Shown one piece after another: positions 17,807-43,124 of a DNA stretch of 64,000 nucleotides (the first letter of the stretch is position 1; every line of letters starts with the position of its first letter). This DNA comes from Thermoanaerobaculia bacterium. GTDB lineage: Bacteria > Acidobacteriota > Thermoanaerobaculia > UBA5066. The stretch spans positions 4,330 through 68,329 of the forward strand of contig JBGQDL010000001.1 in the NCBI GenBank assembly GCA_041495865.1. Reading direction: 5' to 3'. Below the pieces are notes generated by a model. That model had not been told where the DNA came from. It saw only the letters and a list, made by a program, of their open reading frames with translations, and ran no database searches. A program made the translations under genes and the position numbers.

Positions 17807-17815
17807 GTCGCCTCC

Positions 17816-18286: not shown

Positions 18287-18288
18287 GG

Positions 18289-19158
<870 letters not shown>

Positions 19159-19186
19159 CTCTCGCTCTCCTTTCCGCGTTGCGACA

Positions 19187-19819
19187 CTATCTCAACAAAA
19201 GCAAGTAGATCACCAGAATCACGACAGCCACGAGAACCCAGAGGACCGGCCGGCGAAGGGCGCGCGCGGCGGCCCGGTCGGCGATCCGGCTTCCGAAGGA
19301 GACCACCTCGATCGGGGGAGCCGGGGCCGGCGCCGCCGGCGGCGGCCCGGTCCCGGCCGCAGCCGGCTTCTCCAGCTCGGCTCGCATGGCCTCCGTGAAC
19401 TTCTCGAGCATCTGGTTCGACACGTCCTGCATCAGCCCGCGGCCGAACTGCGCGAGGATTCCCGTGACGCTCAGCTCCGAGACCACGCTCACCTCGGTTT
19501 CGCCGGGGGCCCGCTCCGCGACGCGGCTGGTCATCCGCATGTCGGCTCCGCCGCGCCCGCTCACGTCGAAGCCCCTGGCGCTGATCTCCGCGATCCGGGC
19601 GGCCGCGTCCAGCTTCTCGAAGCGCACCGTGCCGCGGTAACGCGCGGAGACCGGTCCGACCTTCACCGTAATCGTGCCGTTGTAAGTCGCCTCGTCCACC
19701 TTTCCTGTGATCGCGGCGCCGGGCAGGGCGGGCGCGATGCGGATGGGGTCGGTGAGGTATGCCCAGACCTTGTCCGGCGTGGCCTTGACGACGAACGAAT
19801 GCTCGAAACGCAGGCTCAT
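19187..19819 (-). CDS. coxG: CoxG (SRPBCC-fold CO dehydrogenase accessory protein) with C-terminal membrane anchor
   Basis: N-terminal SRPBCC domain (FVVKATPDKVWAYLTDP...), Pro/Ala linker and terminal TM helix, the typical CoxG architecture; cox cluster position. Confidence 0.8.
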   Translation of the reverse strand: MSLRFEHSFVVKATPDKVWAYLTDPIRIAPALPGAAITGKVDEATYNGTITVKVGPVSARYRGTVRFEKLDAAARIAEISARGFDVSGRGGADMRMTSRVAERAPGETEVSVVSELSVTGILAQFGRGLMQDVSNQMLEKFTEAMRAELEKPAAAGTGPPPAAPAPAPPIEVVSFGSRIADRAAARALRRPVLWVLVAVVILVIYLLLLR

Positions 19820-19820
19820 C

Positions 19821-20951
19821 TCAGCCTGTCAGCTCGGGTAAGAGCCGCTCGAGCGACTCGAGGTCGTGGGCGGAAGCGAAGTGGTCGACGTAAGGGAGCG
19901 CCACCCGCATCCCGAGGGCCGCCGGCTCGTAACGCGGGTCGCCGAGGAGCGGGTTCAGCCAGATCACTTTTCGGACTCGGCGCTTGATGAGGCGCAGCGC
20001 CTCCGCGAGCCGGGCCGGGTCGCCGCGATCGAGCCCGTCGCTCAGGATGACCACGATGCTCTTGTGGTCCGCGAGGCGCTGGAGATGGCCCTCCGCGAAC
20101 GCCGCGAGGCTCTCGCCGATGCGCGTGCCCCCGGACCAGTCGGGCACCGACGTGAGGAGGCGCTCGAGGGAGAGCCGGACTTTTCCCGGCGCAAGCGACG
20201 CGGTGATGTGGACCAGCTCGGTGTTGAAGGCGAAGACCTCAGCGCGGGGCGCGGCGCGCCGGATGGAGAGCGCGAAGCTCATCAGGAAACGGCCATGGGC
20301 GTCCATCGACCCGCTCGTATCCAGAAGGAAGACGAGCCGCGACTCTGTGACCGCGCGGGTGCGGCGCGCCAGGACCAAGAGCTCCCCCGCCGAACCCAGC
20401 GCCCGTCGGTAGCTCGACCGCAGGTCCGGCCTGCCCCGGCCGCGCGTCGGAACGAGCCGCCGGCTCCGGTGTGTGGCGACGCGGCGCGCCAGGCGAGCGA
20501 GGAGCCGTTCCATCGCCGCGAGATCCGCGCCGGACCATCCGGTCTCGTCGAAGGGCTTGCGGCGAAGCAAGGCCACGGAGCTGTAGCCGGGTTCGTCGCC
20601 ATCCGACGAAGGCGTCCCCGGAGCGTCGCCCATGCGGCCGGCGTCGGGATCCCAGTGAAGAGGACGTCCCCGCGGCAGGGCGGGCGCTTCCGGCTGGCGC
20701 GGGGGCGGCGGGGCCGGCGCGATGTTCGGCTCGCCGTCCCAAAAGACGCCGAAGAGCTCGTCGTAAGTCTCGAAGCCGTGACGAGGGATTTTGAGAGCGA
20801 TCCGGACGCCTCGCCGGACCTCCTCTTTGTCCTCGAGATCGACGAACGTCAGGGCCTCCGCGGCATCCAGCTCGTCCCGAAGGGTCGTCGCGATGCCACG
20901 GGCCCTAAGGGCTCCGCCGATTCGGGCGAGGCCGAGAGCGAAATCTCTCAC
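19821..20951 (-). CDS. coxE: CoxE-like VWA-domain protein
   Basis: C-terminal von Willebrand factor A domain with MIDAS motif (LVFLLDTSGSMD...); overlaps coxD by 4 nt. Confidence 0.8.
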   Translation of the reverse strand: MRDFALGLARIGGALRARGIATTLRDELDAAEALTFVDLEDKEEVRRGVRIALKIPRHGFETYDELFGVFWDGEPNIAPAPPPPRQPEAPALPRGRPLHWDPDAGRMGDAPGTPSSDGDEPGYSSVALLRRKPFDETGWSGADLAAMERLLARLARRVATHRSRRLVPTRGRGRPDLRSSYRRALGSAGELLVLARRTRAVTESRLVFLLDTSGSMDAHGRFLMSFALSIRRAAPRAEVFAFNTELVHITASLAPGKVRLSLERLLTSVPDWSGGTRIGESLAAFAEGHLQRLADHKSIVVILSDGLDRGDPARLAEALRLIKRRVRKVIWLNPLLGDPRYEPAALGMRVALPYVDHFASAHDLESLERLLPELTG

Positions 20952-21841
20952 GGTTGCGCCGGCTCCCGCGCGCGCTCGACGAGAGAAGCGACCTCCGAGG
21001 CGTTCACCGTCTGGAGGTCATGCCGGTCCTTGAGAAGACAGCCGAGGGTCTGGAAAACGTCCTCCGGCTCCAGCGCTTCGCTTCGGAGAATCAGGAGCGC
21101 CCGCGTGAAGTCAAGCGTCTCGGCGACGCCCGGAGGCTTGACGAGCTGGCGCTGCCTGAGGGCCTGGAGAAACTGCCCGACCTCGCGCGCCAGGCGTTCC
21201 TGGACGATCGGGTAGCGCGTGCGGATGATCCGCACCTCCTTCTCGAGGCTGGGGTGCTCGATGTAGAGGTAGAGGCAGCGGCGGCGGAGCGCATCGCCCA
21301 GCTCCCGCGTACGGTTGGACGTGAGCACCACATGTGGCGAGTGGTCGGCGCGGATCGTCCCCAGCTCGGGGATCGTCACCTGAAAGTCCGAGAGCACCTC
21401 GAGCAGGAACGCTTCGAAGCCGTCGTCGGCCCTGTCCACCTCATCGATGAGCAGGACCGGCGGACCCGCGGTGCGCGTGATGGCCTTGAGGAGCGGCCGC
21501 TCGAGGAGGCAGTCGCGGCTGAACATCCGGGCCTCGAGATCCCCCGGGGCGTCGCCACGAGCTTCCGAGATCCGCAGCCTCAGGAGCTGCTTCGGATAGT
21601 CCCATTCGTAGAGCGCCGTCTGGACGTCCAGCCCCTCGTAGCACTGGAGGCGGATCAGCTCGGTGTCCAGCAAGCGGGCGAGGACCCTTGCCAGCTCGGT
21701 CTTTCCGACTCCGGCATCGCCCTCGATCAGGAGCGGCTTCTGCATCTCGCGGGCCAGGAACACCGCCGTCGCGATCGTCGGATCGGCGACGTAGCCCTGC
21801 CCCTCGAGGGCGACGAGCAGCTCCCCGATCTCGGGCCTCAC
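20948..21841 (-). CDS. coxD: CoxD, MoxR-like AAA+ ATPase
   Basis: Walker A GDAGVGKTELAR, Walker B VLLIDEVDRAD, sensor LTSNRTRELGDALRRRC; GTG start at 21841 overlapping the upstream stop (the track ORF is over-extended to 22267). Confidence 0.8.
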   Translation of the reverse strand: MRPEIGELLVALEGQGYVADPTIATAVFLAREMQKPLLIEGDAGVGKTELARVLARLLDTELIRLQCYEGLDVQTALYEWDYPKQLLRLRISEARGDAPGDLEARMFSRDCLLERPLLKAITRTAGPPVLLIDEVDRADDGFEAFLLEVLSDFQVTIPELGTIRADHSPHVVLTSNRTRELGDALRRRCLYLYIEHPSLEKEVRIIRTRYPIVQERLAREVGQFLQALRQRQLVKPPGVAETLDFTRALLILRSEALEPEDVFQTLGCLLKDRHDLQTVNASEVASLVERAREPAQP

Positions 21842-22782
21842 GGCTTCACGGCCCCGGCGAGGTAGCGCTCCGGCGCTGCCTGGAAGCGCTCGCGGCAGCC
21901 CGCGCAACAGAAGACATACTCTCGTTCCCCGTGTCGCGCGCGGTGCGCGGCCCCTTGGACGCGCACGGTCATTCCGCAGACCGGATCGAGCGCCTCCTCG
22001 GGAGGCGCCGACTCGGCGATTCGCGGGAGCGAGAGCGAGATCGCGCGCCGCTCCTTCACGATCTCGGCCAGGATGCTGACGGCGATCTCCTCGGGGAGGC
22101 GGGCGCCGAGATCGAGGCCGGCCGGGTTCTTGATCCGCGCGAGACTCGCCTCGGGCGCCTTGCGCGAAAGGACGGAGCGCATCTCGGCGAATCGCTTCGG
22201 GCTCGCCACGACGCCGAGGTAATCCGGCTTTTCTTCGAGGGCCGCCGCGGCCGCTTCCTCGTCCCACTCGCCCTGCGTCGCGACCACCGCGAAGACGGGG
22301 CCCCGCTGCGCGCTGGCATTCCCCGTGGACGGGCTCTCGGACACCGCCCCGCCGGTCATCTCCTCGATGGCGTGGACCGTGTACCCCATCGCCCGGCCCA
22401 GCGCCCAGAGGGCGCGGGCGATTGGGGAAGACCCGTAGACTATGAGGCGGGGCGCCGGCAGGACCGGCTGAATGAGGATCTCCACGCTTCCTCCGCTGTG
22501 GCAGGTCATCGGGAAGAACGAGACGCCCGGACGCCGCGGCGCATTGGGATCGGGATCGAGGGCCACGAGGCGGGGCTTGCCGTCTTCGAGAGCCTTGAGG
22601 GCCTCGGCGATCACGGTCGGGCGCGTGCAGCTCCCGCCGACCCAGCCGTGGAACGCGCCCTCGCCCGTCACGAGCGCCATGTCCCCGACCTGGGCCGAGA
22701 GCGGAGCCTTGCGGGCCACGACCGTTGCGACCGCGAATCGTTCTCCGCGTTTGCCGAACTCGGCAGCCAGCTCGAGAAGCTC
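21838..22782 (-). CDS. XdhC/CoxI-family molybdoenzyme maturation protein with C-terminal YHS (TRASH-like) metal-binding domain
   Basis: ATG at 22782 preceded by GGGAG; XdhC N-domain (MRLELLELAAEFGKRGERFAVATVV) and Rossmann-like C-domain; last 50 aa DPVCGMTVRVQGAAHRARHGEREYVFCCAGCRERFQAAPERYL = YHS domain consensus. Confidence 0.7.
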   Translation of the reverse strand, partial: ELLELAAEFGKRGERFAVATVVARKAPLSAQVGDMALVTGEGAFHGWVGGSCTRPTVIAEALKALEDGKPRLVALDPDPNAPRRPGVSFFPMTCHSGGSVEILIQPVLPAPRLIVYGSSPIARALWALGRAMGYTVHAIEEMTGGAVSESPSTGNASAQRGPVFAVVATQGEWDEEAAAAALEEKPDYLGVVASPKRFAEMRSVLSRKAPEASLARIKNPAGLDLGARLPEEIAVSILAEIVKERRAISLSLPRIAESAPPEEALDPVCGMTVRVQGAAHRARHGEREYVFCCAGCRERFQAAPERYLAGAVKP

Positions 22783-22795
22783 CAGGCGCATCTCT

Positions 22796-23410
22796 TCAGG
22801 CTCCCGCGAGGTCCGCGCGCGCGCGTTCGTAGTCTTCGGCGACGTCGATGTCCCGAAGGGCGCCGACACTCGAGGCGACGACGGCGGCCTCGTGCGCGTG
22901 ACGGCGTACCACCTCCCTGCCACAGCGCCCTTCCGCGAGGGCGAGCAGCTCCGGGAAGAGAGAGCGGTCGTAGAGGGTGGGAGGGGCGTCGACTTCTCCG
23001 TATCGCGACAGGACGAGAGGTGCGCGGCTCTCCCGATAGCTCTCGACCACCGTTCGGATGGACGACGCCGTGACGAAGGGCATGTCGGCCAGGAGAACGA
23101 CGGCGGCGCCGACGCGCGTGCCAGCGGCCTCCGCGACTCCGGCCTTGAGGGAGGTGCCGACGCCCAAGGCGTGGTCCGGGTTCACGATGGCGAGGCAAGG
23201 CAGCCCGCGCAGCTCGACCCTCACCCTTTCGGCCTCGTGGCCCAAGACCACGACGACCGGCTCGAGGTCCGCCTCGAGCGCCTCGCGCACGGCCCGGCGA
23301 ACGACCGTCTCGCGGCCAATCGGGAGAAGGAGCTTGTTTCGCCCCATGCGGGTCGACGAGCCCGCGGCGAGCACCACGCCCGCCACCTTCGTGTTCTCAG
23401 CGGGCGGCAT
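22796..23410 (-). CDS. mocA: MobA-like NTP transferase, probable molybdenum cofactor cytidylyltransferase MocA
   Basis: VAGVVLAAGSSTRMGRNKLLLP...LLADMP nucleotidyltransferase motifs; embedded in the cox cluster. Confidence 0.7.
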   Translation of the reverse strand: MPPAENTKVAGVVLAAGSSTRMGRNKLLLPIGRETVVRRAVREALEADLEPVVVVLGHEAERVRVELRGLPCLAIVNPDHALGVGTSLKAGVAEAAGTRVGAAVVLLADMPFVTASSIRTVVESYRESRAPLVLSRYGEVDAPPTLYDRSLFPELLALAEGRCGREVVRRHAHEAAVVASSVGALRDIDVAEDYERARADLAGA

Positions 23411-24485
23411 GAACCGCGCTCTCCCGCAGACGCAGATGGTGAGGCTCGCGCCGCGCCCGCACCGCGAGCAGCTCCGCCACGATGCTGAGGGCCACCTGCT
23501 CGGGGCCGTCGGCCCCGAGATCCAGGCCGACCGGTCCGAAGATCCGCTCGTCGCCCTCGATCCCGAGGTCCGCCAGGATCTTCATCGTTCTCTTCCTAGG
23601 ACCCAGGATGCCGATGTAGAAGACGTCGGTCCCGGCGAGCCTCCGCACCCACTCGGTGTCCTGCTTCAAGGAATGCGTCTTGACGACGGCACACGCATCG
23701 CGGTCGAGAAGGACCTCCTGCGACAGCTCCTCCGGCCGAAGCGGAAGCAGCTCCCACGCCTCGGGAAAGCGCCGAGCGGCCAGGTGGGCGGCCCGATGAT
23801 CCGCCACGAAGACGCGGAGACCCGCGGCCGCGGCGAAGGACACGAGGGGGCGGGCGTCGTCCCCCGCTCCGCAGACGAGCAGCCTGGGCGGAGGCAGCAG
23901 CACTTCCGTGAAGACGAGCCGCGAGCCGAAGGGTTCGAGCCTCGTCGCGCGATCGCGCAGGGCCGCCGAGGCCGCTGCCTCCACCGCCGAGTCCGCCGCT
24001 TTTTCGTCGAGGCCGCCCGCGGCGCGGCCCGACGGTCCGACCGCGACCACTTCGCCGCGCCCATCCTCCTCGACGATCAGTGAGATCGCGAAGGGGGAAT
24101 CCCCCTGGAGCAAATGGCGGACTCGTGCCCAGGGTCCCGATGCGGCTTCTTTCGAGATCGGCAGGACGAGAACCTCCACGCGGCCATCGCAGCCGAGCCC
24201 GAGCCCCCAGACCCTCGCCTCGTCGTCGCTCGTGTCGTAGCGGAGCACGCGCGAACGTCCGGTGCGGATGACCTCCAGCCCCACCTGGCGGACGTCCTCC
24301 TCGAGGCAGCCGCCGCTGATGCCGCCCAGCGTGGAGCCCTCGGCCTCGATCAGCAGCTTGGCTCCCGTACGGCGGTACGCGGAGCCTTCGACGCGCGTCA
24401 CGACGGCCAGCGCGGCTGAACGGCCCTGCCGGCCGACGCGGCGGATGCGATCCACGATGTGGCTGGTTTCCTGCCAGTGCTTCAC
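23397..24485 (-). CDS. XdhC/CoxF-family accessory protein (two-domain XdhC)
   Basis: 362 aa; XdhC_CoxI N-domain (ALAVVTRVEGSAYRRTGAKLLI) and C-terminal NAD-fold domain (LLVCGAGDDARPLVSFAAAAGLRVFV); first gene of the cox operon. Confidence 0.75.
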   Translation of the reverse strand: MKHWQETSHIVDRIRRVGRQGRSAALAVVTRVEGSAYRRTGAKLLIEAEGSTLGGISGGCLEEDVRQVGLEVIRTGRSRVLRYDTSDDEARVWGLGLGCDGRVEVLVLPISKEAASGPWARVRHLLQGDSPFAISLIVEEDGRGEVVAVGPSGRAAGGLDEKAADSAVEAAASAALRDRATRLEPFGSRLVFTEVLLPPPRLLVCGAGDDARPLVSFAAAAGLRVFVADHRAAHLAARRFPEAWELLPLRPEELSQEVLLDRDACAVVKTHSLKQDTEWVRRLAGTDVFYIGILGPRKRTMKILADLGIEGDERIFGPVGLDLGADGPEQVALSIVAELLAVRARREPHHLRLRESAVHAAR

Positions 24486-25114: not shown

Positions 25115-25595
25115 GATGGCGGCTCTGGTCCTTCTCGTGAACGGGACGAAGCGGTCCGCGGAGGCGGACGCCGGCGAGTCCCTGCTCTCCGTGTTGCGCG
25201 ACCGCCTGGAGCTCACCGGCACGAAGTACGGCTGTGGCGAGGGACAGTGCGGGGCGTGCACCGTCCTCCTCGACGGCCGCCCCGCGCGCTCGTGCCTCAC
25301 CTCGGCCGCCGACGCCCCGGGAAAGAAGATCACGACCATCGAGGGGCTGGAGGCAAACGGCCGGCTTCACGCGGTACAGGAGGCATTCCTCAAGGAGGAG
25401 GCTTTCCAGTGCGGCTCCTGCACGTCGGGAATGATCCTCGCCGCTGTGGCCCTCCTCGACCGCCGCTCCGATCCCGCCGATGCCGAAATTGTCTCCGCGC
25501 TCACGCGAAGGACGGGAGAATCGTGGGCACGCCGGTCTCCAAGGTCGACGGGCGCGACTTCGTCACCGGCAGGCATCTCTACACCTCCGACCTAG
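25115..25595 (+). pseudogene. Truncated [2Fe-2S] small subunit of a xanthine-dehydrogenase-family (IorA-like) enzyme
   Basis: First cluster motif CGEGQCGACTV...RSC and first half of the second (FQCGSCTSG) are present, but the sequence after DAEIVSALT runs into junk with no GNLCRC-GY motif. The 3' end of the gene appears deleted and its frame overlaps the next gene. Confidence 0.5.
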
Positions 25596-26847
25596 CGCGC
25601 CCCGGCATGCTCCACGGCAAGGTCCTGCGGCCAGCCGCCTTCAAGGCGATGCTCGTCTCCGTCGATCTCGAGCCGGCGAGAAGGCTGCCCGGCGTCGTCG
25701 CGGTCCGCGACGGAGACTTCGTGGGGGTGGCCGCGCCCGACGTCGGCACCGCCGAGCGCGCGCTCGCCGCGATAGCCGCGCAATGGAAAGCCTTGCCGCA
25801 GCCGTCCGACAAGGAGCTGTGGGACGAGCTGAAGAAGCCTCCAGAAGCGGGCGAGCGCTCCGAGCCGCAGACGACCGGCAGCGTCGCGACGGCGCTCGCG
25901 GCGGCGGACATCAAACTCGAGTCGCGCTACACGGTCGCCTTCATCGCGCATGCTCCGCTCGAAACCCGCGCCGCCCTCGCCGCGTGGAAGAACGGCGCGC
26001 TCACGGTCTCCACCGGCACGCAGAGGCCCTTCGCCGTGCGCGACGAGCTGGCCGACGCCTTTCATCTCCCCACCGAGAAGGTGCGCGTCCTCGTGCCCGA
26101 CACGGGCTCGGCCTACGGCGGCAAGCACACGGGCGACGCCGCCCTCGAGGCCGCGCGCCTCGCGAAGGCCGCCGGCAAGCCCGTGAGGGTCGTCTGGACG
26201 CGCGAGGAAGAGTTCACCTGGGCGTACTTCCGCCCGGCGGGCGTCATCGAGGTGAAGAGCGGCGCCGGGCGGGACGGGAAGCTCGCGGCGTGGGAGTTCC
26301 ACAACTACAACTCCGGGCCGGCCGCGATCGCCGACCCGCGCCTGGCTGCGGTGTTCGAGGCGGCGGCGGCGAGGTTCGGTTGGGGGAAGCAGGAAGCCGG
26401 GCCGGGCCGCGGCTTCGGACTCGGCGGCGGGAAGGACAAGGGCGGCTACGTGGCGACGTGCGCCGAGATCGCGGTGGACGAAGCCCGCCGCGTGCGCATC
26501 GTGCGCGCCACCGTCGCGTTCGAATGCGGCGCCGTCGTGAACCCGAACGGCCTCAGGAACCAGATCGAGGGGGCCGTCGTGCAGGGTATCGGCGGCGCGC
26601 TTTTCGAGGCCGTGCGTTTTCGGACGGACACATCACCAATCCGCGTTTCTCCGCGTACCGCGTCCCGAGGTTCACCGACATGCCCGGGATCGACGTCGTC
26701 GTTCTCGACCGCAGGGATCTGCCTTCCGCCGGCGCGGGCGAGACGCCGATCGTCGGCCTCGCGCCCGCCGTCGGCAACGCGATCTTCGCCGCGACGGGAA
26801 CCCGGCTGCGCGCCCTGCCCCTCGCCCCGGAGGGAATTTCCGGCTGA
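25539..26847 (+). pseudogene. Remnant of an IorB-like molybdopterin-binding large subunit (about 436 codons instead of more than 700, plus a 1-nt frameshift)
   Basis: GTG 25539 with GGGAG RBS; a/b-hammerhead domain (VGTPVSKVDGRDFVTGRHLYTSDLARPGMLHGKVLRP) and first MoCo domain (PDTGSAYGGK), then a jump to the C-terminal RFGWG...GRGFGLGGG...NPNGLRNQIEGAVVQGIGGALFEAVRF. The frame then shifts by 1 nt in the TTTT run at 26617-26620 to DGHITNPRFSAYRVPRFTDMPGIDVVVL...PIVGLAPAVGNAIFAATGTRLRALPL. Confidence 0.5.
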
Positions 26848-26949
26848 CGTCCGGCCGCGCCAGTTGCCGCGGCTCATCGGGCGTCATAACCTCCGGCCGG
26901 TCTGGCGAAAAATGAAAAACGACCGCTCGGATTCGCCCGGGAGTGCACG

Positions 26950-28005
26950 ATGACCGCTCGAGTAGCCGCCTGGGCTGCGCCCTCGTCGAAGGCGCCGCTC
27001 CTTCCCCACGCGATCACGCGCCGCGAGCCGGGGCCGCGCGACGTCCAGATCGAGATCCTCTACTGCGGTGTCTGTCACTCCGACATTCACCAGGTCCGCG
27101 ACGAATGGGGCGGCTCGATCTTCCCGATGGTGCCGGGCCACGAGATCGTGGGCCGGGTGACGAAGGTCGGCGCGGGCGTCTCGAAGTTCGCCGCGGGAGA
27201 TCTGGCCGGCGTCGGGTGCTTCGTCGACTCGTGCCGCTCGTGCGACCCGTGCAAGCGCAACCTGGAGCAGTTCTGCCAGAAGGGGGCGGCCTTCACGTAC
27301 AACGGCACCGAGATGGACCGCAAGACGCCGACTTACGGCGGTTACTCGGTCGAGGTCGTCGTCGAAGAGAGGTACACGCTGAAGGTCCCGTCCGGCTTCG
27401 AGCTCGCGGCGGCGGCCCCGCTCCTCTGCGCCGGGATCACGACCTATTCGCCCCTAAGGCGGTGGAAATGCGCGCCAGGAAACCGCGTCGGGGTCGTCGG
27501 GCTCGGAGGCCTGGGCCACATGGCGGTGAAGCTGGCCGCCTCGATGGGGGCCGAGGTGACGATGCTCAGCACGTCTCGGGCCAAGGAGGCGGACGCGCGG
27601 AGGCTCGGTGCCCATGCCTTCGAGCTGACGAACGAGCCCAGGGCGCTCGAGAAGCTGGCCGGACGGTTCGACATCCTGATCGACACCGTCTCGGTCGATC
27701 ACGACCTCAACGCGCACCTCGCACTTCTCCGGCCGGAGGGGGCGATGGTCGTCCTCGGCGTCCCGCCGCATCCGGCGTCCGTCGCCGGCATGTCGCTGAT
27801 TTACGGCAGCAAGACGCTGGCCGGATCCATGATCGGCGGCATCGCCGAGACCCAGGAGATGCTGGACTACTGCGCGTCGAAGAAGATCGCCGCGGACGTC
27901 GAGGTGATCCCGATCCAGAAGATCAACGAGGCCTACGAGCGGATGCTCAGGAGCGACGTCCGCTACCGCTTCGTGATCGACATCGCGAGTTTGAAGGGGA
28001 GCTGA
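26950..28005 (+). CDS. Zinc-dependent NADP alcohol dehydrogenase (cinnamyl alcohol dehydrogenase / YahK family)
   Basis: GVCHSDIH catalytic Zn motif, structural Zn CxxCxxC (CRSCDPC), GLGGLGHMAV Rossmann motif. Confidence 0.85.
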   Translation: MTARVAAWAAPSSKAPLLPHAITRREPGPRDVQIEILYCGVCHSDIHQVRDEWGGSIFPMVPGHEIVGRVTKVGAGVSKFAAGDLAGVGCFVDSCRSCDPCKRNLEQFCQKGAAFTYNGTEMDRKTPTYGGYSVEVVVEERYTLKVPSGFELAAAAPLLCAGITTYSPLRRWKCAPGNRVGVVGLGGLGHMAVKLAASMGAEVTMLSTSRAKEADARRLGAHAFELTNEPRALEKLAGRFDILIDTVSVDHDLNAHLALLRPEGAMVVLGVPPHPASVAGMSLIYGSKTLAGSMIGGIAETQEMLDYCASKKIAADVEVIPIQKINEAYERMLRSDVRYRFVIDIASLKGS

Positions 28006-33822: not shown

Positions 33823-35151
33823 TCAGAACGCCACGCGAAGCGTGAGAAGCCCCTCGTCCGGGTGGAGAACCCCTCTCCTCGTCGTGGCCTCGTTGCGCGA
33901 GTACTCGACCGTGAGGTCGAGGCCGCGCACGATGCCGAGCCGGAAGCCGAGGTCGAATTTGCGCCAGTCCCACCCGACGGACGGCTCCACGGAGCCGGGC
34001 GACGGATCGAAGAGGTTGTCGATGTACGAGGCGCGCAGCGCGGGCTCGATCCAGTTCACGACGGACTGGTCGCCCGACGCGAAGAGCCCCGGCAGCGGGA
34101 TGCGTACCGAGAGCTCGGCCTCGTAGCCCTCGCGCCCGAGGCCCGCGATGGACTGCTTCACGCCCTGCCCGAAGAAGTGCACGGGGCCGAAGCGTGCCTC
34201 GAGGTTGACGCCGTACTCGCGCTTTTCGGTGCCGGAGACGGGCAGGGAAAGACCCTGCAGCAGGCGAAGGTCTCCCGAGATGAACGTACCGCGGAGCGAC
34301 ACGCGGTCGGCGAGGCCACGCCGGAAGTACCAGCCGAGGATCTCGACGCCTTCGCGGCGGTTCTCGCCCCAGTTGAAGCGCAGACCCATGCCGCCCCCGA
34401 CCTGGAACCGGCCCGAGAGGCCCGCGTCGGTCGCCATCGTGTCGTACAGGATCGGGAACCCGGAACCGTAGACGGCCGGCGCCGTGGAGCCCGCGGCGTG
34501 CTCAGGCGTGCCGTTGTCGCCCGCGAGGGCGTTGACGTCACGGTAAAAGAGCGGCGTGCCGCCCGTGGCGCTCGCGCGCCAGTAGACGTGCGGTCCGAAC
34601 GAGCCGCCCGCCTCGGCGCCCGTCTCCTCGAAGCGGTTCACGGCCGTGCCCCACAGGCCGTAGCTCTCGAGACGCCGCGCGATCTGCTTCGAGAAGCGCG
34701 GCGCCTTGCCGAGCTCGAGATACGCGGTAGTGCCGGGCATCTCCTTCAACGCTTCCCACTTCTTCCCGAACCGCACGAAGGCCTCGCGGAGCTGAATGCG
34801 GTCGGCGCTGGAGGTGGGGTTGCGGTTGTAGAGATCGAGGAAGTGGACGACGACGCGCGCAAGAAGATCGGACGTGAGGTCGCCCTCGGCCGTCAGCGCG
34901 ATGTTCGAGATCTCGGCCGAGGTGTGCGGCGAGACGGTCTGCAGGACGACCGGGATCGGCGCGCCCGTGTTCGCCACGGGGAAGTCGAGGGAGGTCGACG
35001 TGCGCGCGTTGACCTTCATCTCCACCTTTAGCCGGAACGCGCCGGAGTCGGTGGCGAGGGCGCCCGCGCCGAGCAACGAATCCTGCGCGCGCGCGGCAGG
35101 CGCGCGCAGGAGGACGAACGTGAGAACGATCGCTCGAGGAACGCGCCGCAC
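33823..35151 (-). CDS. Outer-membrane beta-barrel protein (porin-like)
   Basis: Signal peptide; alternating amphipathic beta-strands; C-terminal ...LTLRVAF with terminal Phe typical of OMPs. Confidence 0.55.
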   Translation of the reverse strand: MRRVPRAIVLTFVLLRAPAARAQDSLLGAGALATDSGAFRLKVEMKVNARTSTSLDFPVANTGAPIPVVLQTVSPHTSAEISNIALTAEGDLTSDLLARVVVHFLDLYNRNPTSSADRIQLREAFVRFGKKWEALKEMPGTTAYLELGKAPRFSKQIARRLESYGLWGTAVNRFEETGAEAGGSFGPHVYWRASATGGTPLFYRDVNALAGDNGTPEHAAGSTAPAVYGSGFPILYDTMATDAGLSGRFQVGGGMGLRFNWGENRREGVEILGWYFRRGLADRVSLRGTFISGDLRLLQGLSLPVSGTEKREYGVNLEARFGPVHFFGQGVKQSIAGLGREGYEAELSVRIPLPGLFASGDQSVVNWIEPALRASYIDNLFDPSPGSVEPSVGWDWRKFDLGFRLGIVRGLDLTVEYSRNEATTRRGVLHPDEGLLTLRVAF

Positions 35152-35178: not shown

Positions 35179-36522
35179 CTACGGGGGTGTCTCGAACTGC
35201 TTCCTGAGCGCGGTGATCTGGCGCTCGGAAACCTGCTCTTTCGGAAGGGCCTCGGCCCAGGCCAGGGCGTCCTCGCGCGTCTTCCTCGCCGCCCGAGCGT
35301 CCCCCTTTTTCGCGTAGATGTCGGCGCGCGCCTGCAGGAGGACGAGCTTCCGCGGGCCGTACGCGAGCGCGAGCGCGCGGTCGGACGCCGCGAGGGCCTC
35401 GTCGAACTTCTTCAGGGCGCGGTACGCGAGGGTGAGGCGCGCGGGCGGGTTGTAGTCGCCGGGAAAGTCGCGCTCGGCCGCCTCGAGCATCGGGATCGCG
35501 CGCTCGGGCCGGCCCAGCTCGAGATACGCCGTCAGGCGGTGCGCGTCGAACGCGGCACGGGCTTCGGGGGTCTTTCCCTTCGCGGCCTCGGCCTCGAGAT
35601 ACGCCGCCCATACCTCTACGATCTTCTTCTTGCCGGCCGCGTCGTTCACCGAATCCCGCTCTTCCGCGAGCGTCTGGTAGAGGCCCGAGACGTCATCGAC
35701 GGCGAGGCCGGCGCGCTCTCCGCCGAGAACCTCCCGCGCATCCGCGGCGAGAGCCTGGAGGAGAGCGGCCTTCCGGGGCGCGTCCTTCGGAAGCGAGACT
35801 GCGCAGTCGAGGCCCGATCCGGCCACGTTCGCGGCCGAAGGCGAAAAGCGGAGGTTCGGGAAGGCGTCTTTCGCGGCCGACGCGCACGGCTCCGGCTGGC
35901 GGCTCGCCGAGAGCGCGAAGAGGAGCGACTCGACCGCGCGAGGGTAAGACGGCGAGGACGTCGACATGCCCTTCAGCGCGGTTTGGTACGCCTCGGCTGC
36001 TTCCTTGTTCTGCCCGGCCGAATAGAAAGCGTCTGCCTTCGCGAGCCATTCGTCCGGCTTTCGGCCCTCGCGGTCACCCCCCGCCGCCAGGGCCCCGTCG
36101 TCGAGGATGCGCTGGAGCTGCGGCACGGTTGCGCCGCCGACGTAGCGCAGGACGACCTTCTCGGACGCGGGGTCGATCACGTAGAACGAGGGCCAGGCCT
36201 GGACCGGATACTTCGCGAGGAGGGCCGCGTTCTCCCGCTTCTCGGTGTTGATGGAGAGCCAGACGAACCGTCCGGCCTGCCGCCCGAGCGCCTTGTCGGT
36301 GAAGACGAAGGCCCTCACGGAGCGGCACGTGTGTCACCAGGGCGCCCAGGCCTCGAGGAGGATTGGCTTGCTCTCTGCGCGAGCCGTGGCGAGGGCCCGC
36401 GGAAAGTCGTCGGCGATGAAGGGAAGGATTTCTTTGTCGGCTTGTCTGACTGAGGAGGCGGCGCCGGGCGATGGGACGGCAAGAGACGTGACGACGATCG
36501 CCGCCGAGAGGGTCATTCGCAT
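35179..36522 (-). CDS. Secreted thioredoxin-fold (TlpA/Trx-like) plus TPR protein with in-frame UGA in the CxxC motif (W-A-P-W-U-H-T-C), a selenoprotein candidate
   Basis: Track ORFs 36522-36334 (signal peptide...KPILLEAWAPW) and 36318-35179 (..., FVWLSINTEKREN, WPSFYVIDP, TPR repeats) share one frame, separated only by TGA at 36336-36334 then HTCRS. Thioredoxin-fold beta1-CxxC-alpha1 layout with the first Cys position occupied by UGA. Confidence 0.55.
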
Positions 36523-36558: not shown

Positions 36559-38547
36559 TCAGCGAATGGCCGCGAGCGCCTTTTCCGTCTCGGCGAGGAG
36601 CGCCTCGGGCCCGACGGGCGCGCCCGTGGCCTGCGTCATCCAGAGGTCGGGCGCGATGTTGCCCAGCCTGGCCATGCGCTCGAACTCGGGTCCGATCGCT
36701 CCGGTTTTCTCCATCTGCCGCTCGATCTGGAACGCGATCATGTGGCCGATCGGATAGTCCGGCAGGTAGAGGAACGAGTCGATCATGTGCGAGTAGACCG
36801 CCAGGAGCGTGACGTCCTTCTCGCCGAGGACGCTCGCGAAGAAACGGTTCCACACGTCGCGCGCGATCGCGAGCGTCGCCTTCTTCAGCTCGGCGGGCGT
36901 GGCCTCGGGGTGGTCGTACATGTAGTGCCACACGCCCATGTCGACGAGGGCGACGCCCGCGATCTCGTACGTGCCCCAGAACGCGTCGAGCGTCTGCTGC
37001 GCGCGCGCCTCGGCCGAGGGCTTCGCGAGGCCGAGCAGCTCGAGGTCGTGGCCCTGGAAGACGAACGCCAGCGCTTCGGTGAACGCCGTGTTCGGTACGC
37101 CCTGAAGGAGCGGAAAGTCGATGTCGTAAAGGGAGAACGTCTGCTCGACGTTATGCCCCATCTCGTGAACGGCGATGTTGTAGCCCTTGTAGTTCATGCC
37201 GTCCTTCTCGACGCGCGTCCTGAGGTACGCCTTGTAGCCCCTGAGGCCGGCGCCCGACGCGTGACCCGAGCCGCGCGCGGGATGAACCTCGATGCGGGAC
37301 GCGAGGGTCTCGGCCTTCTCCTTCGCAAAGCCGAGCTTCACGAGGATGTTCGGGATGTCCTTCGCATACGCCTCGGGCGTCGGGTACTTCGCGCGCACGA
37401 GGGCGTCCAGGTCGGCGGCGGACCGCGCAGCCTGCGGCCGGAAGCCGGGGTACCAGACGTCGACGGGCGAAAGCTCTCGCCCGAGCCGCCTCCCGACGAG
37501 GGCCGCCACCTTCGGGACGAGCGGCGACGAGAGCACGTCCTCGAGCATCTTCCTGACCCGCGCTTCGGGGATCTGGCGGTCCTCGTCGAACTTGCGAGCG
37601 AGGAACGTAGGCGCCGTCGGCGAGTAGGGATCTGCCTGCTTCACGGCGCGGAAGCACGCGAGAAGCGTCGCGTAGCGGATGTCGGGCTCGGGGCCCGGAG
37701 CGGCGTCCGCCGCCGGAACGTCGGCGTCCTCGACGGAGGCGCGGCGCGTTTCGTTCGTGAAAGGGTTCCAGTCGACGTTCGGGTTGTCGACGACGGCGCG
37801 CGGAATCGTCTGGTCGACGATGCGCTCCATGACCTTGCGGATGGCGCGCTGCTTCGCGGGCCCTCTCTCGCGGTCGGCGTAGTCGGACTTGATCTCGTCG
37901 CGGAGGTTCCAGTGCGAGAGGAGCCGCATCTTCGCCGGAAAAAGGCGCGTGCCCTTCTCGTCCACGAGGTGGTGCATCCAGATGTTGTACGCGGCGATGT
38001 ACTGGGCCGAGTCGGATTGGGCCTTCGCGATCGCGAGATTCACGCTCGCGGGGATGCGCGTCGCGAACCGGTCGGCGAGGCGCGCCTCGGCCCACTGGCG
38101 GCGCGTCCACGTGCCGCCGAGGCGGAGTTTCTCGTCGAGCGTGTACACGGGGAAGTTGAGGAGCGCCGTGAAGGCGAGCTTGTCGTCGAAGAGGTCGTCC
38201 GTGACGTGCGCGCCCGGGTCGTAGCCCGCGAGCACCTCGTCGAACGGGAGGATCGGCCCGCGGTCGAGGTCCACGTGCATGCGGAGGTCGCGGCCGGCCT
38301 CGCGCATGTGACCGTCGAGCGAGGTGAGCGCGGCCGCGAGCCGCGTGAAGAGCGCGTCGCGCGCCGCCGCGTCGGCCGCCGTGTTCGCCTTCGCGAACGC
38401 CTCGAAGGCCGCCGCGTCGCCGTCGGCCGGACGCCACAGCGCGGCGGCCTGCTTTTTCCCGCGAGCCTGCTCGGGCGTTTCGGCGAGTGCGGCAGACATG
38501 GCGAGTCCCAGGAGGACGAAGAAGAAGAGATTCTTGCTCCCTCTCAT
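36559..38547 (-). CDS. Secreted gluzincin-type zinc metallopeptidase
   Basis: Signal peptide MRGSKNLFFFVLLGLAMSAALA; HEMGH at IAVHEMGHNV with a downstream Glu (FTEALAF) 26 aa after the motif. Confidence 0.7.
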   Translation of the reverse strand: MRGSKNLFFFVLLGLAMSAALAETPEQARGKKQAAALWRPADGDAAAFEAFAKANTAADAAARDALFTRLAAALTSLDGHMREAGRDLRMHVDLDRGPILPFDEVLAGYDPGAHVTDDLFDDKLAFTALLNFPVYTLDEKLRLGGTWTRRQWAEARLADRFATRIPASVNLAIAKAQSDSAQYIAAYNIWMHHLVDEKGTRLFPAKMRLLSHWNLRDEIKSDYADRERGPAKQRAIRKVMERIVDQTIPRAVVDNPNVDWNPFTNETRRASVEDADVPAADAAPGPEPDIRYATLLACFRAVKQADPYSPTAPTFLARKFDEDRQIPEARVRKMLEDVLSSPLVPKVAALVGRRLGRELSPVDVWYPGFRPQAARSAADLDALVRAKYPTPEAYAKDIPNILVKLGFAKEKAETLASRIEVHPARGSGHASGAGLRGYKAYLRTRVEKDGMNYKGYNIAVHEMGHNVEQTFSLYDIDFPLLQGVPNTAFTEALAFVFQGHDLELLGLAKPSAEARAQQTLDAFWGTYEIAGVALVDMGVWHYMYDHPEATPAELKKATLAIARDVWNRFFASVLGEKDVTLLAVYSHMIDSFLYLPDYPIGHMIAFQIERQMEKTGAIGPEFERMARLGNIAPDLWMTQATGAPVGPEALLAETEKALAAIR

Positions 38548-38650: not shown

Positions 38651-41600
38651 CTATGGCAGCGGGACGGAGGTGATTGCGCCCTCCGCGATGTTGAACGTCG
38701 TGCCGCCGCCGCTGTCCAGCGTGAGGACGTAGCTGCCCGGCGCGAGGTTCGCGAGGCGCCTGAAGCCGGTCTGGCCGCTGGCGTCGGCCGTGATCGCGAT
38801 GCGTCCGTCCGCGCTGAAGAGTGTGTACGGGTAGGGAACGCCCGCCGCGGTCTTCAGCGTCCCGCGCACGATGCCCTTCACGAAGGACTTCGGCCCGACG
38901 GCGATGTCGGCCGAGCCGCCCGGTGTGAGGGTGACAGGCACGGGCTGCTGCGAAGGTGCCGACACGCTCGCGAGGTAAACGGTCGCGTAGCCGCTCGCGT
39001 TCACGAAGATGGCGTACCCGCCCGGCTTGAGCGACGGGATCTCGCCCGCCCCGTTCGTGTCGAGCGCGATCGAGCCCGTGAAGACGGCGGACTGGTTCAC
39101 ATCGAGGACGCGTGCCATGACGCTGCGCAGCGGCACACCGTAGATTCCGTCCCTCACCTGGATGCCGATTCCCTGCCCGCGCGCGAGCTCGACGGAGACA
39201 TTCTCGCTGCTGCCGTCGTCGGCCGCCGTGAGGCTGCGCTTCTCGAACTGGTAGTCGGTCTTCTGGGAATTGAGCGTGTAGGCCTGCGGCACGATGTCCG
39301 CGAACTGGAAGTGCCCGTTGCTGTCGGTCGTCGTCATGCGCTGCATCGCGACGCTGCCCGTTCCTCCCGCCGAGGCGAGGGAGACGGTGGCGTCGGCCAG
39401 CGGCTGCTTCGTGTCGGCGTCCGTGACGACCCCGGCCACCTTCGCCATCGGGAATGTCAGGTCGAGGCTCTGGTCGTTCGTGAGCGAGACGGTCTGCCTG
39501 ACCTGTGAGCCGCCGCCGGCGAGCGGATCGCCCATGGCGGTGACGGTGTACGAGCCTTCCTGGAGGCCCTGCAGCGCGTAGCCACCGCCCTCGTCCGCGC
39601 GCGTCGTCGCCTGGCGGCCGCCGCCGCCCTGCAGGTTCGCGACGACCATGGCGTTCGCGACAGGCTGGCCCGCGCGCGTGACGTGACCGCTCAGCGCGAA
39701 TCCGACGTCGAAGACGATCTCCGTCTGGAGGACGGGCACGTCGTCGCTCGCCGTGACCTGCTTCGTCGCGCTGCGCGACGTGCCGAGGCCGTCGCCCGCC
39801 TGCGCCCGAAGCGTCACCGGGCCCGCCGGCACGCCCGAGACCGCGAAGGTGCCGTCGGCGCCGACCTTCGTGCTCGCGAAGAAGGCCTGGGCGCCCGTCA
39901 CCATGACCGTCATCCCGCTCCGCATCGTGTCGGGCAGGCCGGATACGGTCCCCTGGATCGTCGAGCCCGCAGAAAGCGAGAGCACGAGGTCGCTCTTCGA
40001 ATCGCCCGCCTGGAGGACGAACTCCGAGAGGCTGCTCGACTTGCCGTTCATTCCAGCCGACACCGAGTAGCGGCCCGCGCCAAGGTGATCGAAGTGGAAG
40101 CGCCCCGCCGCGTCGGACGTCGTCGTCTGGCTGCCCCCCAGGATGCGGCCGAACCCCGTGTCCCCGGCGGCCGAGAGCGCGACCTCCGCGCTCGGGAGGG
40201 GCTGGCTCCCGGCCACGACGACGCCGCTCGCGGAGCCGCCGGTCGTGAGCTTGATCTCGACGGTGCCGCCCGTCTCCTTGACGTCGGCCACTTCGCTGCC
40301 GTCGGTGTAATCGGGGTTCTTCGCGGTGACCTTCAGGCGCCCGACTCCGATGCCGTCGATCTCGAAGTTCCCCTCCGCATCCGTGGTGACGTCGCCTTCG
40401 CCCCCCAGCGCGGCGAGGGGACCGCCACGACCGCCGAATCCGCCCGGGCCTCCGCTGCCCGCCACTTCGTGCGTGATGCTCGCGTTGGCCACGGGACGCC
40501 CGGTGCGGGCATCCGTGACGCGGCCCTTGAGGACGACGCCCGGCGTCGCGCGCACCTCGACATGGTCCTTGACGCCGTTCTCCTCGACGACGAGGTTCGC
40601 GACGCGCGCCTGCTGATACCCCTTGGACTCGACGACGACGGTCCACGTCCCCGACGGCACGTCTTCGAGCGCGAATGTGCCGTCCTCCGTGTTGACGTCG
40701 CGCTTCTGGCCGATCCCCGTCTGCGCGCCCGCGCCGCGCGCGACGAGCCGGATGATGGCACCGCCGCCGCGGTCCGGCTCGTACGAGACCGAGAAGTTCC
40801 TGAGCGGCTGACCGCTCCGCGCGTCCAGCGCGGTCCCCGCGATGCGGCCGGTGCCGGCCACCACGAGGTCGACGTTCGCGGCCGGCGCCACGACGCCGTG
40901 CTTCTGCGGTCCGAGGCCAACGCCGCCGAACACGGACAGGTCGTAGACCTGGCCCGGCTTCAGCCCTTCGATGACGAAGAGGCCGTCTGGACCCGTCGCG
41001 AGGTCGGTGCCCGTGCCCGCGAAGGGCCCCCCGGCACCGGCCGCGCCGCGGCCGCCGGTCCCCACGCGCACCAGGTATCCCTCCGCGCCCTCACCGCTCT
41101 TCTTGCGCACGATGCCAGCAATGCTGGCCCCGGGGCCGAGCGTCACGGCCACTCTCTCCGCGCCCGTGTCGGTCACCTTGACGGGATCGACCCGCTCGTT
41201 CGCGAAACCGGACTTTCGGACATGCAGCGCGTACTCGCCCACGGACATGCCCGTGATGTGGAAAGTGCCGTCGGCCGCCGTCTTCGTCTTCGGCCGCTGG
41301 CTCGGGCCGCCGAGGCGCGCGAAGTTCGCGACCATGCCTCCGGCGCCCGCGCGGAAGTTCACGGACGGATCGACCTGCACTTCGACGTCCGCGATCGGCT
41401 GGTCGTTCGCGTCCTTCACGACGCCCGAGATCGTCGCGCCGCGGCGCATCACGATCGCCACGTCGCTCTTCGTCCCGCCCGAAGGCAGGGAAAGTCCGGC
41501 GAGGGTCGCGCGCTCGAAGTCGGCGTGGCTCACGGTGAGGCGCTGGTTGTCCCCCGGGAAAAGGCGCGTCGCCTTGAACGTGCCGTCCTGGCGCGTGCGA

Positions 41601-42941
41601 AACGCCGTCGTCTCGCCGCCGACGCGCAGCATCCTTCGAATCCCCGCGATCGCGTTCTCGCCGCGGCGATTGAGCGTCCCCCGGGCCGCGGGGACAGGAG
41701 CGCCGTTTTCGTCGACGACCTTGCCGATCAGAGTGGCTGAAAGCGAGACCGCGACGTCGAGTCGCCTCGCCTCACCGGGCGCGAGCGCGAGCTCCGGCTT
41801 CACCCACGGCACGTAGCGCGCCTCGTCGACCGAGAGCCGGTACGTCTGGGGTGGAACGCCCTTCAGGTGGTAGAGGCCATCCGGTCCCGTGCGCGCGAGG
41901 CGGGCAAAGCCGTTCGCCTTGACGAAGACTTTCGCGCGCGGGACGACGCGCCCCGTCTTGTCGTCTACGACCTTGCCGTCGAGCGACGCGGGCAGCGCAA
42001 GCGTGATCGTGAGCGACTTGCCCTCGCCGAGCGGCAGCTTCACGTCCGGCCGGCTTCCCCAGCCGGCTTCTCCCGCATCGACGACGATCGTGCCGCGCCC
42101 GTCGGGCGCGTGCGGGATCGTGAAACGCCCCTCGGCGTCGGTCTCGACCCATCGCGTCGTCGCCCGGGTGCTCTCGAAACGCACGAGCGCGCCTGCAGTG
42201 GGCTTCTTGTTCGCACCGAGGACGGCGCCCGTCACCGGATCCCCCGCGAGCGCCGCGATCGGGCGCGGAACCGCGCCCGCCCGGAGGCCGGTCTCCCGCG
42301 CCGGCGCGAGCCCGGCCTTCTCGATCGTGATGCGGTTCCCCGTGGCGCTCGCCTCTTCGAACTGGAACCTGCCGTCCTCGCCCGTGACGGCGGTGCGGGT
42401 CACGACGCGATACGCGAGGTCGTCGCCGCTTGCGACGCCGGGCTCGAGCGAGACCGCGGCTCCTCCGAGCGGCTTGCCGGAGGCGTCGACCGCGATCCCC
42501 GAGAGCTTTTCGCCGTGCGGCAGGATGTGCTCGCCCAGGTCCTCGGTCTCGGCAGCATCGTAGACGCCTTCAAAGAGCACCGGCACGATGCCCGCTCCCT
42601 CGGCCCTCACCGAAAAGAGCCTCTCCTTGCCCGGCTCGGCCGGCGGGACCGTGAGCACGAAGGACCCGTCCGGCCCGCTCGTCGCCGAGGCGAAGGGCTT
42701 CGGCGCCTCGCCTCCCTTCATCTCACGCCGGGCCATTTCTCCGGGCGTTTCCCAGGGAACCGCGGAGATCGTGACGCCCGGCGCAGGCTTGTCCGCGCGG
42801 TCTGCGACGAGGATGCGGCCACGGATCTCGCCCGCGCCCGCCGGAGCCGTCAGGACGAGGGAAGCCACGAGCGGGACGATTCGACTCACGAAAGCCGCTG
42901 GGAACTTGACCACGGGGAGATCCTCCACGCCGAATTGACCC
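38651..42941 (-). CDS. Giant secreted protein of about 15 tandem carboxypeptidase-regulatory-like (CarboxypepD_reg / Cna-B-type) beta-sandwich domains
   Basis: GGAGGA RBS then GTG 42941; signal peptide; recurrent ~85-aa unit GxVxDxxGxPxxxAxVxxxx...TxxDGxFxxxxLxxGxYxLxxxxxGF repeated along 1430 aa. Confidence 0.75.
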
Positions 42942-43124
42942 TCAGGGGGGTCGATTGGGAAGCAGCGAGCAACTCCAGGGCCATGCGGCTCCGCCGCCAC
43001 GGGGTCATTCAGAGCAAGACGCCCGCGACGAAGAAAGGTTGCGTCCCGCCGTGGGTCGAGCGCGGGCCCGGGGGAAACATGTGGAACACTATCAGCGGCT
43101 CACGAAGGGAGGATTCGTGCCTTC

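Follow-up and report, generated by a model that had tools for sequence, protein, structure and literature searches.

Gene structure and the in-frame UGA codon

The subject of this report is a minus-strand gene of a Thermoanaerobaculia bacterium (NCBI GenBank assembly GCA_041495865.1) that lies in a 64,000-nucleotide (nt) stretch of contig JBGQDL010000001.1 (positions 4,330 to 68,329), hereafter the window. The product combines a thioredoxin (Trx)-fold domain with a solenoid of tetratricopeptide repeats (TPR), and the reading frame contains one TGA, which we read as selenocysteine (Sec). The gene and the codon are as follows.

35179 to 36522, minus strand: complete coding sequence (CDS) of the selenoprotein, 447 codons including Sec, from the ATG at 36522 to the TAG at 35181-35179
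36334 to 36336, minus strand: UGA codon 63, read as Sec, first position of the U-H-T-C redox motif

The frame is open from ATG to TAG but for the single TGA at 36336-36334, and the gene-caller output presents the gene as two pieces, 36522-36334 and 36318-35179. An earlier note on this DNA had described two same-frame minus-strand open reading frames (ORFs) parted by one TGA, with the frame 36522-35179 otherwise open, and the translation it gave on either side of the TGA matches the frame re-read here. This frame runs MRMTLSAAIVVTSLAVPSPGAAS...KPILLEAWAPW up to the stop and HTCRSVRAFVFTDKALGRQAGRFVWLSINTEKRE... after it; around the stop it reads ...KPILLEAWAPW and then HTCRSVRAFVFTDKALG... The TGA thus stands in the context W-A-P-W-[TGA]-H-T-C. 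Reassignment of TGA in the genetic code was considered and rejected, since TGA is the ordinary terminator of 16 of the 24 window genes that are well supported by Pfam matches.

Conservation of the UGA codon among relatives

A protein-collection search with the window product returned about 100 clusters at 62-100% identity. Their members are 376-382 amino acids (aa) long, cover 85% of the query and start with M-R-A-F-V-F-T-D just past the redox motif. A few homologues of 442-452 aa span the whole query and align end to end with the window gene. Seven full-length homologues carry cysteine (Cys) exactly at the UGA column, in EAWAPW-C-HTCRSM, which places the window TGA on the first Cys of a CxxC motif. 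The proposal of the earlier note that UGA replaces this first Cys is therefore borne out, full-length Cys homologues reading WAPW-C-HTC exactly there.

The codon itself was followed at the DNA level in 160 related loci, drawn from 80 species-representative genomes (mostly metagenome-assembled genomes labelled Thermoanaerobaculia or Acidobacteriota) and from 80 contigs of metagenomes for which the most divergent branch served as seed. The site held TGA in 68, TGC in 11 and TGT in one of the genomes, and TGA in 78 and TGC in two of the contigs. Taken together, TGA was present in 146 of the 160 loci and a Cys codon (TGC or TGT) in 14, and in none of them was the site TAA or TAG. The 146 TGA-bearing assemblies are independent and share about 50-100% protein identity.

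These counts bear directly on the possibility that the TGA is a sequencing or assembly error from TGC or TGT, or a private nonsense mutation in a pseudogene. A single base separates TGA from either Cys codon, and an unexplained in-frame TGA likewise interrupts a histidine kinase gene of this window (10829-13243), so that the assembly may contain lesions or errors. However, an identical TGA recurs across the 146 assemblies, the RNA element downstream of it tracks the Sec state, and both flanks are under purifying selection. An error or a nonsense-mutated Cys homologue, the two alternatives listed in the earlier note, can be set aside with near certainty given the 146 assemblies with TGA and the lack of any TAA or TAG.

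The flanking codons indicate that the ribosome passes the UGA. The PIF-x-EAWAPW peptide 5' of the stop is conserved among relatives, and across codons -20 to -1 and +1 to +5 the amino acids are kept and synonymous sites vary, the Arg codon at +4 being CGC, CGT, CGG or CGA. Conserved residues with synonymous variation on both sides of the TGA point to translation through it in the same frame. Codons +1 to +5 (H-T/S-C-R-S) are of particular value here, as they follow the TGA and precede the start codon that gene callers select.

The same codons weigh on a second explanation, namely that UGA is a genuine stop and that the locus makes an exported peptide of 62 residues and, separately, a TPR protein of about 380 residues by re-initiation at an AUG or GUG six codons past the UGA, with the downstream hairpins serving termination-reinitiation coupling. 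Nearly all database entries are indeed 376-382-aa proteins that begin at M-R-A-F-V-F-T-D, and an in-frame AUG is present at codon +6 (GUG in the window). Nevertheless, this arrangement would split the thioredoxin fold through its active site and leave the larger product with no signal peptide; codons +1 to +5 are conserved in amino acid with synonymous changes, and so appear to be translated; and the stop is always UGA and always at the catalytic Cys, while the Cys forms are contiguous proteins. We consider two separate products highly improbable.

In a neighbour-joining tree, Fitch parsimony required at least six changes between Sec and Cys and, with midpoint rooting, gave Sec as the state at the base of the sampled clade. 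On this sequence evidence, the Cys forms appear to have originated independently at least about five to six times.

An RNA element specific to the Sec forms

RNA positions are counted with the U of the UGA as +1. Three features were delimited downstream of, or around, this codon.

36258 to 36350, minus strand: suppressed synonymous variation (third-position entropy), nt -14 to +79, in Sec forms only
36277 to 36328, minus strand: hairpin 1, nt +9 to +60, with an outer stem (9-15/54-60), an inner stem (21-27/45-51) and an apical stem (31-33/40-42)
36258 to 36276, minus strand: hairpin 2, nt +61 to +79, GCCGGAC-GGUUC-GUCUGGC, with a 7-base-pair (bp) stem

Third-codon-position entropy in Sec forms is 0-0.4 bits from about -14 to +79 and 1-1.5 bits past +80; Cys forms show 0.8-1.4 bits over the same stretch. 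In the window, hairpin 1 has a folding energy of -30.6 kcal/mol (z=-4.1, 0 of 200 shuffles equally stable), hairpin 2 of -11.8 kcal/mol (z=-3.9), and the two together of -44.3 kcal/mol (z about -4, again 0 of 200 shuffles). The mean free energy of hairpin 1 is -28.7 kcal/mol in Sec forms versus -16.2 in Cys forms, and that of hairpin 2 is -11.0 versus -5.5 kcal/mol (Mann-Whitney p about 1e-6 for each hairpin, uncorrected for phylogeny). Ensemble folding of the Sec forms gave mean pair probabilities of 0.5-0.9 for hairpin 1 and about 0.98 for hairpin 2, and these persisted when the first 14 nt were masked to mimic the ribosome footprint. No local pair had a mean probability of 0.3 in ensemble folding of the Cys forms.

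Hairpin 2 is the most constant part of the element. Its stem is paired at 7 of 7 positions in 146 of 147 Sec forms versus 2 of 14 Cys forms, the consensus across Sec forms being GCCGGAC-RGUUY-GUCUGGC with the loop RGUUY. The few changes within the stem (A66G/U74, G64A/U76, C63U/G77) all preserve pairing. Codon choice points the same way. Ala-20 is encoded by GCC in 145 of 147 Sec forms (38% elsewhere in the same genes) and Val-24 by GTC in all 147 (60% elsewhere), and Gly-21 is GGA in 120 and GGG in 26 and never GGC, GGA accounting for 13.5% elsewhere in these genes. Such bias at Ala-20, Gly-21 and Val-24 indicates selection on hairpin 2 as RNA. A further preference is seen at Arg-7, where AGG is used in 95 of 147 Sec forms versus 7% elsewhere. 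The stems of hairpin 1 are paired in 83-90% of cases across Sec forms.

Both hairpins are lost in the Cys forms, save in loci L007 and L141, and with at least six Sec/Cys changes on the tree this loss has been replicated several times. L007 (10100-10183) and L141 are Cys-form (TGC) genes and near relatives of Sec forms. Hairpin 2 is complete in both and hairpin 1 largely so, and given their close kinship to Sec forms the two look like very recent Sec-to-Cys converts in which the element persists as a relic.

A stable structured element 3' of the UGA, as anticipated in the earlier note, is present and specific to the Sec forms. The outer pairing proposed there, CCGCUC with GGGCGG, is found in the minimum-free-energy (MFE) fold. 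The nested GUGAG/UUCAC stem is not part of that fold; it does lie within an alternative local hairpin (stem 20-26/31-37, nt 19-38, 7-8 bp) that is 96.7% paired across Sec forms. Hairpin 2, at +61 to +79, had been overlooked and is much better conserved than the hairpin originally pointed out.

Selenocysteine machinery and the case for selenocysteine

On the contig that carries locus L071 (QHVS01000113.1), ARAGORN found a tRNA-Sec gene with anticodon UCA at 19410-19507 on the minus strand, which scored 69.5 bits against Rfam RF01852 (gathering score 47). About 10 kb separate this tRNA gene from the TGA-form Trx-TPR gene of that contig, and its neighbours are TolQ/TolR-like genes and not selA or selB.

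Readthrough of the UGA by a near-cognate tRNA (Trp, Cys or Arg) or a suppressor tRNA, at least in genomes without Sec machinery, has to be considered against this finding. Stable 3' structures stimulate readthrough, and the element described here is counted for that explanation on this ground. It also lies outside the canonical model of bacterial Sec signals, and no Sec machinery was found in the 64-kb window. However, tRNA-Sec and a TGA-form gene share the L071 contig, a UGA in place of the nucleophilic Cys of CxxC is what typically marks a selenoprotein, and hairpin 2 has the size, the G-containing loop and the stability expected of a SelB ligand. Moreover, no class of bacterial selenoproteins is commoner than the UxxC proteins of the Trx fold (PMC13188914 table). 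Decoding by a tRNA other than tRNA-Sec therefore keeps a slight probability in our assessment.

Several observations weigh against a selenoprotein. The 64-kb window holds no tRNA-Sec, selA, selB or selD: ARAGORN returned no tRNA gene of any kind in it, and Pfam scans of about 40 window ORFs returned no SelA, SelB or SelD domain. Searches of the whole window against Rfam at the gathering threshold, and of the local region at E<=10, gave no selenocysteine insertion sequence (SECIS) or other relevant family. No single hairpin agrees with the consensus bacterial SECIS (bSECIS) in all five of its features, as detailed below. Two mutually exclusive folds are available to nt 20-51, the alternative local hairpin competing with the inner stem of hairpin 1, and covariation was not significant for any stem in either fold. 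The latter is attributable to stems too conserved to vary, so that support for the structures comes from folding thermodynamics, the difference between Sec and Cys forms and biased codon use. Finally, the gene neighbourhood is conserved in the closest clade only and gives no pointer to a redox partner or substrate.

Two further searches were negative. A regular-expression scan for SelD and SelA motifs found no match in 1.63 Mb of related loci, an uninformative result as less than 1% of each genome was sampled. A scan of the window and the related-locus DNA for in-frame TGA codons flanked on either side by coding signal, in which recurrent contexts were clustered to look for a second selenoprotein gene, gave only antisense-frame artefacts and gene junctions.

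Weighing all of this, we are highly confident that the stop codon in the 35179-36522 gene specifies Sec in a genuine secreted thioredoxin–TPR selenoprotein. The identification made in the earlier note is upheld by the alignment with Cys, the conservation of the TGA, the RNA element specific to Sec forms and the tRNA-Sec on the L071 contig.

Candidate locations of the SelB-binding hairpin

The consensus bSECIS has a loop of 3-9 nt, an upper stem of 4-16 bp, a G in the first two loop positions, a distance of 16-37 nt from UGA to loop and an MFE of at most -7.5 kcal/mol (PMC13188914). When all simple hairpins in the window region were enumerated against these criteria, hairpin 2 agreed in loop, stem, G and energy and departed in spacing only (64 nt versus 16-37). 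Within 19-32 nt there is a stable hairpin of 8 bp (-8.9 kcal/mol) with a G-free CUUC loop, and a G-containing one that is too weak (-5.4 kcal/mol). A simple SECIS hairpin with an apical G, as the earlier note had envisaged, is thus not available, none at 16-37 nt from the UGA satisfying the consensus model.

We favour hairpin 2, the invariant core of the element, as the best candidate for the SelB-binding stem-loop. In the resulting proposal, which we put forward tentatively, the element would be a natural, non-canonical bipartite SECIS in which a SelB-binding hairpin 2 located 57-64 nt past the UGA is preceded by hairpin 1 acting as a folded spacer. Hairpins 1 and 2 abut without an unpaired nucleotide between them, and a junction of this kind would allow coaxial stacking. 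The minimal Escherichia coli SECIS is a 17-19-nt stem-loop that must adjoin the mRNA entrance of the ribosome, and it is functional even when grafted onto helix 16 of the 16S rRNA (PMC10945757, PMC11431864). In addition, 12.6% of the bacterial selenoprotein entries in BSepDB lack a canonical SECIS, which would make a distant hairpin unusual and not unprecedented. By analogy, the graft data and the BSepDB figure make action over a greater linear distance plausible.

It is also possible, and held by us no less tentatively, that Sec decoding operates through a SelB site within hairpin 1, either its apical part or the 20-37 hairpin, and that hairpin 2 is accessory, for instance as a ribosome pause or a stabiliser of the fold. 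Such a site would lie 23-31 nt from the UGA, inside the 16-37 nt rule; the 20-26/31-37 stem is paired at 96.7% across Sec forms; and the Sec-specific preference for AGG (95 of 147 versus 7% elsewhere) falls in the hairpin 1 region. However, the integrity of this stem ranges from 2 to 7 of 7 pairs among Sec forms, and hairpin 2 is invariant.

If the bipartite SECIS with its SelB site in hairpin 2 is true, the linear distance from UGA to loop is not the real constraint. SECIS finders that search 16-37 nt would then systematically overlook such genes, the spacing rule of predictors would need relaxing, and part of the approximately 12.6% of entries reported without a canonical SECIS could be explained.

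Domain architecture and proposed function

The product was analysed with Pfam with the TGA read as Cys, and its parts are as follows.

36454 to 36522, minus strand: probable Sec-type (secretory) signal peptide, aa 1 to about 23 (MRMTLSAAIVVTSLAVPSPGAAS), boundary approximate, read from the sequence
36103 to 36411, minus strand: domain of thioredoxin fold (aa 38-140) in which helix 1 begins with UxxC and which contains a conserved W-P-S/T-F cis-Pro loop
35182 to 36075, minus strand: all-alpha TPR solenoid of about 300 aa, aa ~150-447, with Pfam TPR families at aa ~157-440

The N-terminus of the window protein and of its homologues begins with basic residues, continues into a hydrophobic core and ends in small residues, and in the AlphaFold model of P0079, a Cys homologue, residues 1-24 show no ordered structure. 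Together these features would fit a cleaved signal peptide. Matches to Thioredoxin_7 (PF13899; 34.8 bits, cut-off 27) and Thioredoxin (PF00085; 30.7 bits, cut-off 23.5) both cover aa 38-140, so the domain spans the stop; PF13098 scored below its cut-off. The P0079 model (AF2; predicted local distance difference test (pLDDT) score 91.1, predicted template-modelling (pTM) score 0.86) contains a thioredoxin fold at about 36-130, with a strand at 54-59 and a helix at 64-73 that starts at CxxC, followed by an uninterrupted all-alpha solenoid that extends to the C-terminus (helices 133-440, pLDDT >90). P111 of the W-P-S/T-F loop is invariant in the homologue alignment. So are C213 and C240 in the TPR solenoid, across Sec and Cys forms; judged from the alignment, these two may be joined in a structural disulfide, as would suit an exported protein, or may make up a second redox site.

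By sequence, the nearest solved thioredoxin domains are PDB 2kuc_A (E=3.6e-12), PDI domains and DsbD-gamma chains (about 1e-5). Foldseek matches were generic TPR superhelices and E. coli YbbN/CnoX (3qou).

In the mechanism we propose, the signal peptide would direct export, the Thioredoxin_7 or DsbD-gamma-type domain would bear a Sec-His-Thr-Cys redox centre, and the TPR solenoid of about 300 residues would probably hold a substrate or partner protein. UGA codon 63 would be decoded by SelB and Sec-tRNA(Sec) and not by a release factor. Decoding would need the intra-CDS mRNA element at +9 to +79 with its two adjacent stable hairpins, hairpin 2 presumably as the SelB-binding stem-loop and the 52-nt hairpin 1 as the spacer that would bring it near the mRNA entrance of the ribosome. 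From its architecture alone, the product would be a periplasmic thiol-disulfide (selenylsulfide) oxidoreductase acting on clients in the TPR groove.

Neighbouring genes and other features of the window

The same-strand neighbours of the selenoprotein gene, at 33823-35151 and 36559-38547 (both minus), encode proteins of 442 and 662 aa without a Pfam match, and the gaps between the gene and these neighbours are 27-37 nt. Further upstream, 38651-43000 (minus) encodes a 1449-aa protein with ten CarboxypepD_reg repeats. Synteny of the giant CarboxypepD_reg protein and the two unknown proteins was found only in the closest clade, loci L001-L014, where the arrangement may represent a lineage-specific envelope operon.

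The sensor histidine kinase gene at 10829-13243 on the plus strand (dCache, HAMP, HisKA_3) has its in-frame TGA at 12764-12766. It falls in the middle of HisKA_3, at profile position 47 of 68, after which the same frame encodes HATPase_c. The context (...EVKGLA, stop, RALDDLHRVIFDLRP) is not redox-like, and the RNA downstream (z=-0.82) is not unusually structured. This TGA is probably a nonsense mutation, a pseudogene or an assembly error.

A cluster of the CO-dehydrogenase/xanthine-dehydrogenase family occupies 15434-24485 (minus) and 25247-26953 (plus). Its genes include a molybdopterin large subunit, an FAD subunit, CoxG, a CoxE-like VWA protein and an AAA ATPase, as well as two XdhC-like genes, one of them with a YHS/TRASH metal-binding tail. 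A plus-strand ORF by this cluster gives partial, overlapping molybdopterin-binding matches and may be frameshifted or mis-called.

Implications for annotation and selenium biology

The gene is carried by at least 146 assemblies, mostly of Thermoanaerobaculia and other Acidobacteriota from soil and sediment. In the source annotations its members appear as "tetratricopeptide repeat protein", "thiol reductase thioredoxin" or "hypothetical protein", and public gene calls (clusters P0001-P0120) almost always start six codons past the UGA, at a Met (Val in the window). The resulting 376-382-aa entries, which lack the signal peptide and the redox motif, are a systematic annotation error. Recognising the Sec codon gives those proteomes back a full-length exported redox enzyme and shows selenium use in an abundant and poorly studied soil lineage. 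Moreover, repeated replacement of Sec by Cys with decay of the RNA element amounts to a natural experiment by which the features of a SECIS in this phylum could be defined.

Comparison with known systems

Bacterial Trx-fold UxxC selenoproteins resemble the window protein in carrying Sec in place of the N-terminal nucleophilic Cys of CxxC, in coexisting with Cys orthologues and in having a SECIS, a candidate one in the window gene, within the CDS just past the UGA (PMC13188914). The members tabulated in that 2026 review include Sec-containing thioredoxin, a "thiol:disulfide interchange protein" (PF13098), thiol-disulfide isomerase-like and DsbA/DsbG-like proteins, and its family table has no TPR-containing and no Acidobacteriota family. 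Unlike these Trx-like families, the window protein matches Thioredoxin_7 (PF13899) best, is fused to a TPR solenoid and has a signal peptide. As UxxC proteins of the Trx fold are the most familiar class of bacterial selenoproteins and new families are regularly added to it, the finding is solid and unsurprising in kind.

No NCBIfam model reaches its cut-off, the curated selenoprotein "exception" models among them: DsbD scored 34.7 bits against a cut-off of 330, with only its C-terminal thioredoxin domain aligned, TsoB (NF045694) 28.2 against 805 and VPGUxxT type 2 (NF041383) 19.3 against 275, and no other selenoprotein model was found at E<=0.001. The full-text literature searched yielded no Trx-TPR selenoprotein family, an earlier listing in BSepDB under a generic "thioredoxin-like" label being possible. 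The Trx-TPR family is probably undescribed.

In sequence, the thioredoxin domain is nearest to DsbD-gamma and to 2kuc, a "putative disulphide-isomerase" of Bacteroides; both are W-C-x-x-C domains of the periplasmic reductase type. The window protein differs from DsbD in having no membrane domain, in the dipeptide H-T and in Sec for Cys.

E. coli CnoX is a cytoplasmic protein of about 284 aa, with a short TPR part and SxxC instead of CxxC. The window protein, by comparison, contains Sec, begins with a signal peptide and has a far longer solenoid. YbbN/CnoX (PDB 3qou; Foldseek rank 4, E=2e-5) is nonetheless the only solved structure with the same layout of an N-terminal thioredoxin domain and TPR, a likeness that is architectural only (TM score 0.20-0.30, 15% identity, root-mean-square deviation 23 A). 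By analogy, this layout suggests that a redox domain is attached to a scaffold for binding clients, and the window protein may be a secreted analogue of the Trx-TPR "chaperedoxin" arrangement.

With regard to the RNA, hairpin 2 departs from the consensus bSECIS of the E. coli fdhF type in that its loop starts 64 nt, and not 16-37 nt, after the UGA, the interval being filled by a separate and very stable 52-nt hairpin. The mechanism is otherwise standard, and it is in the geometry of its SECIS that this selenoprotein is possibly unusual.

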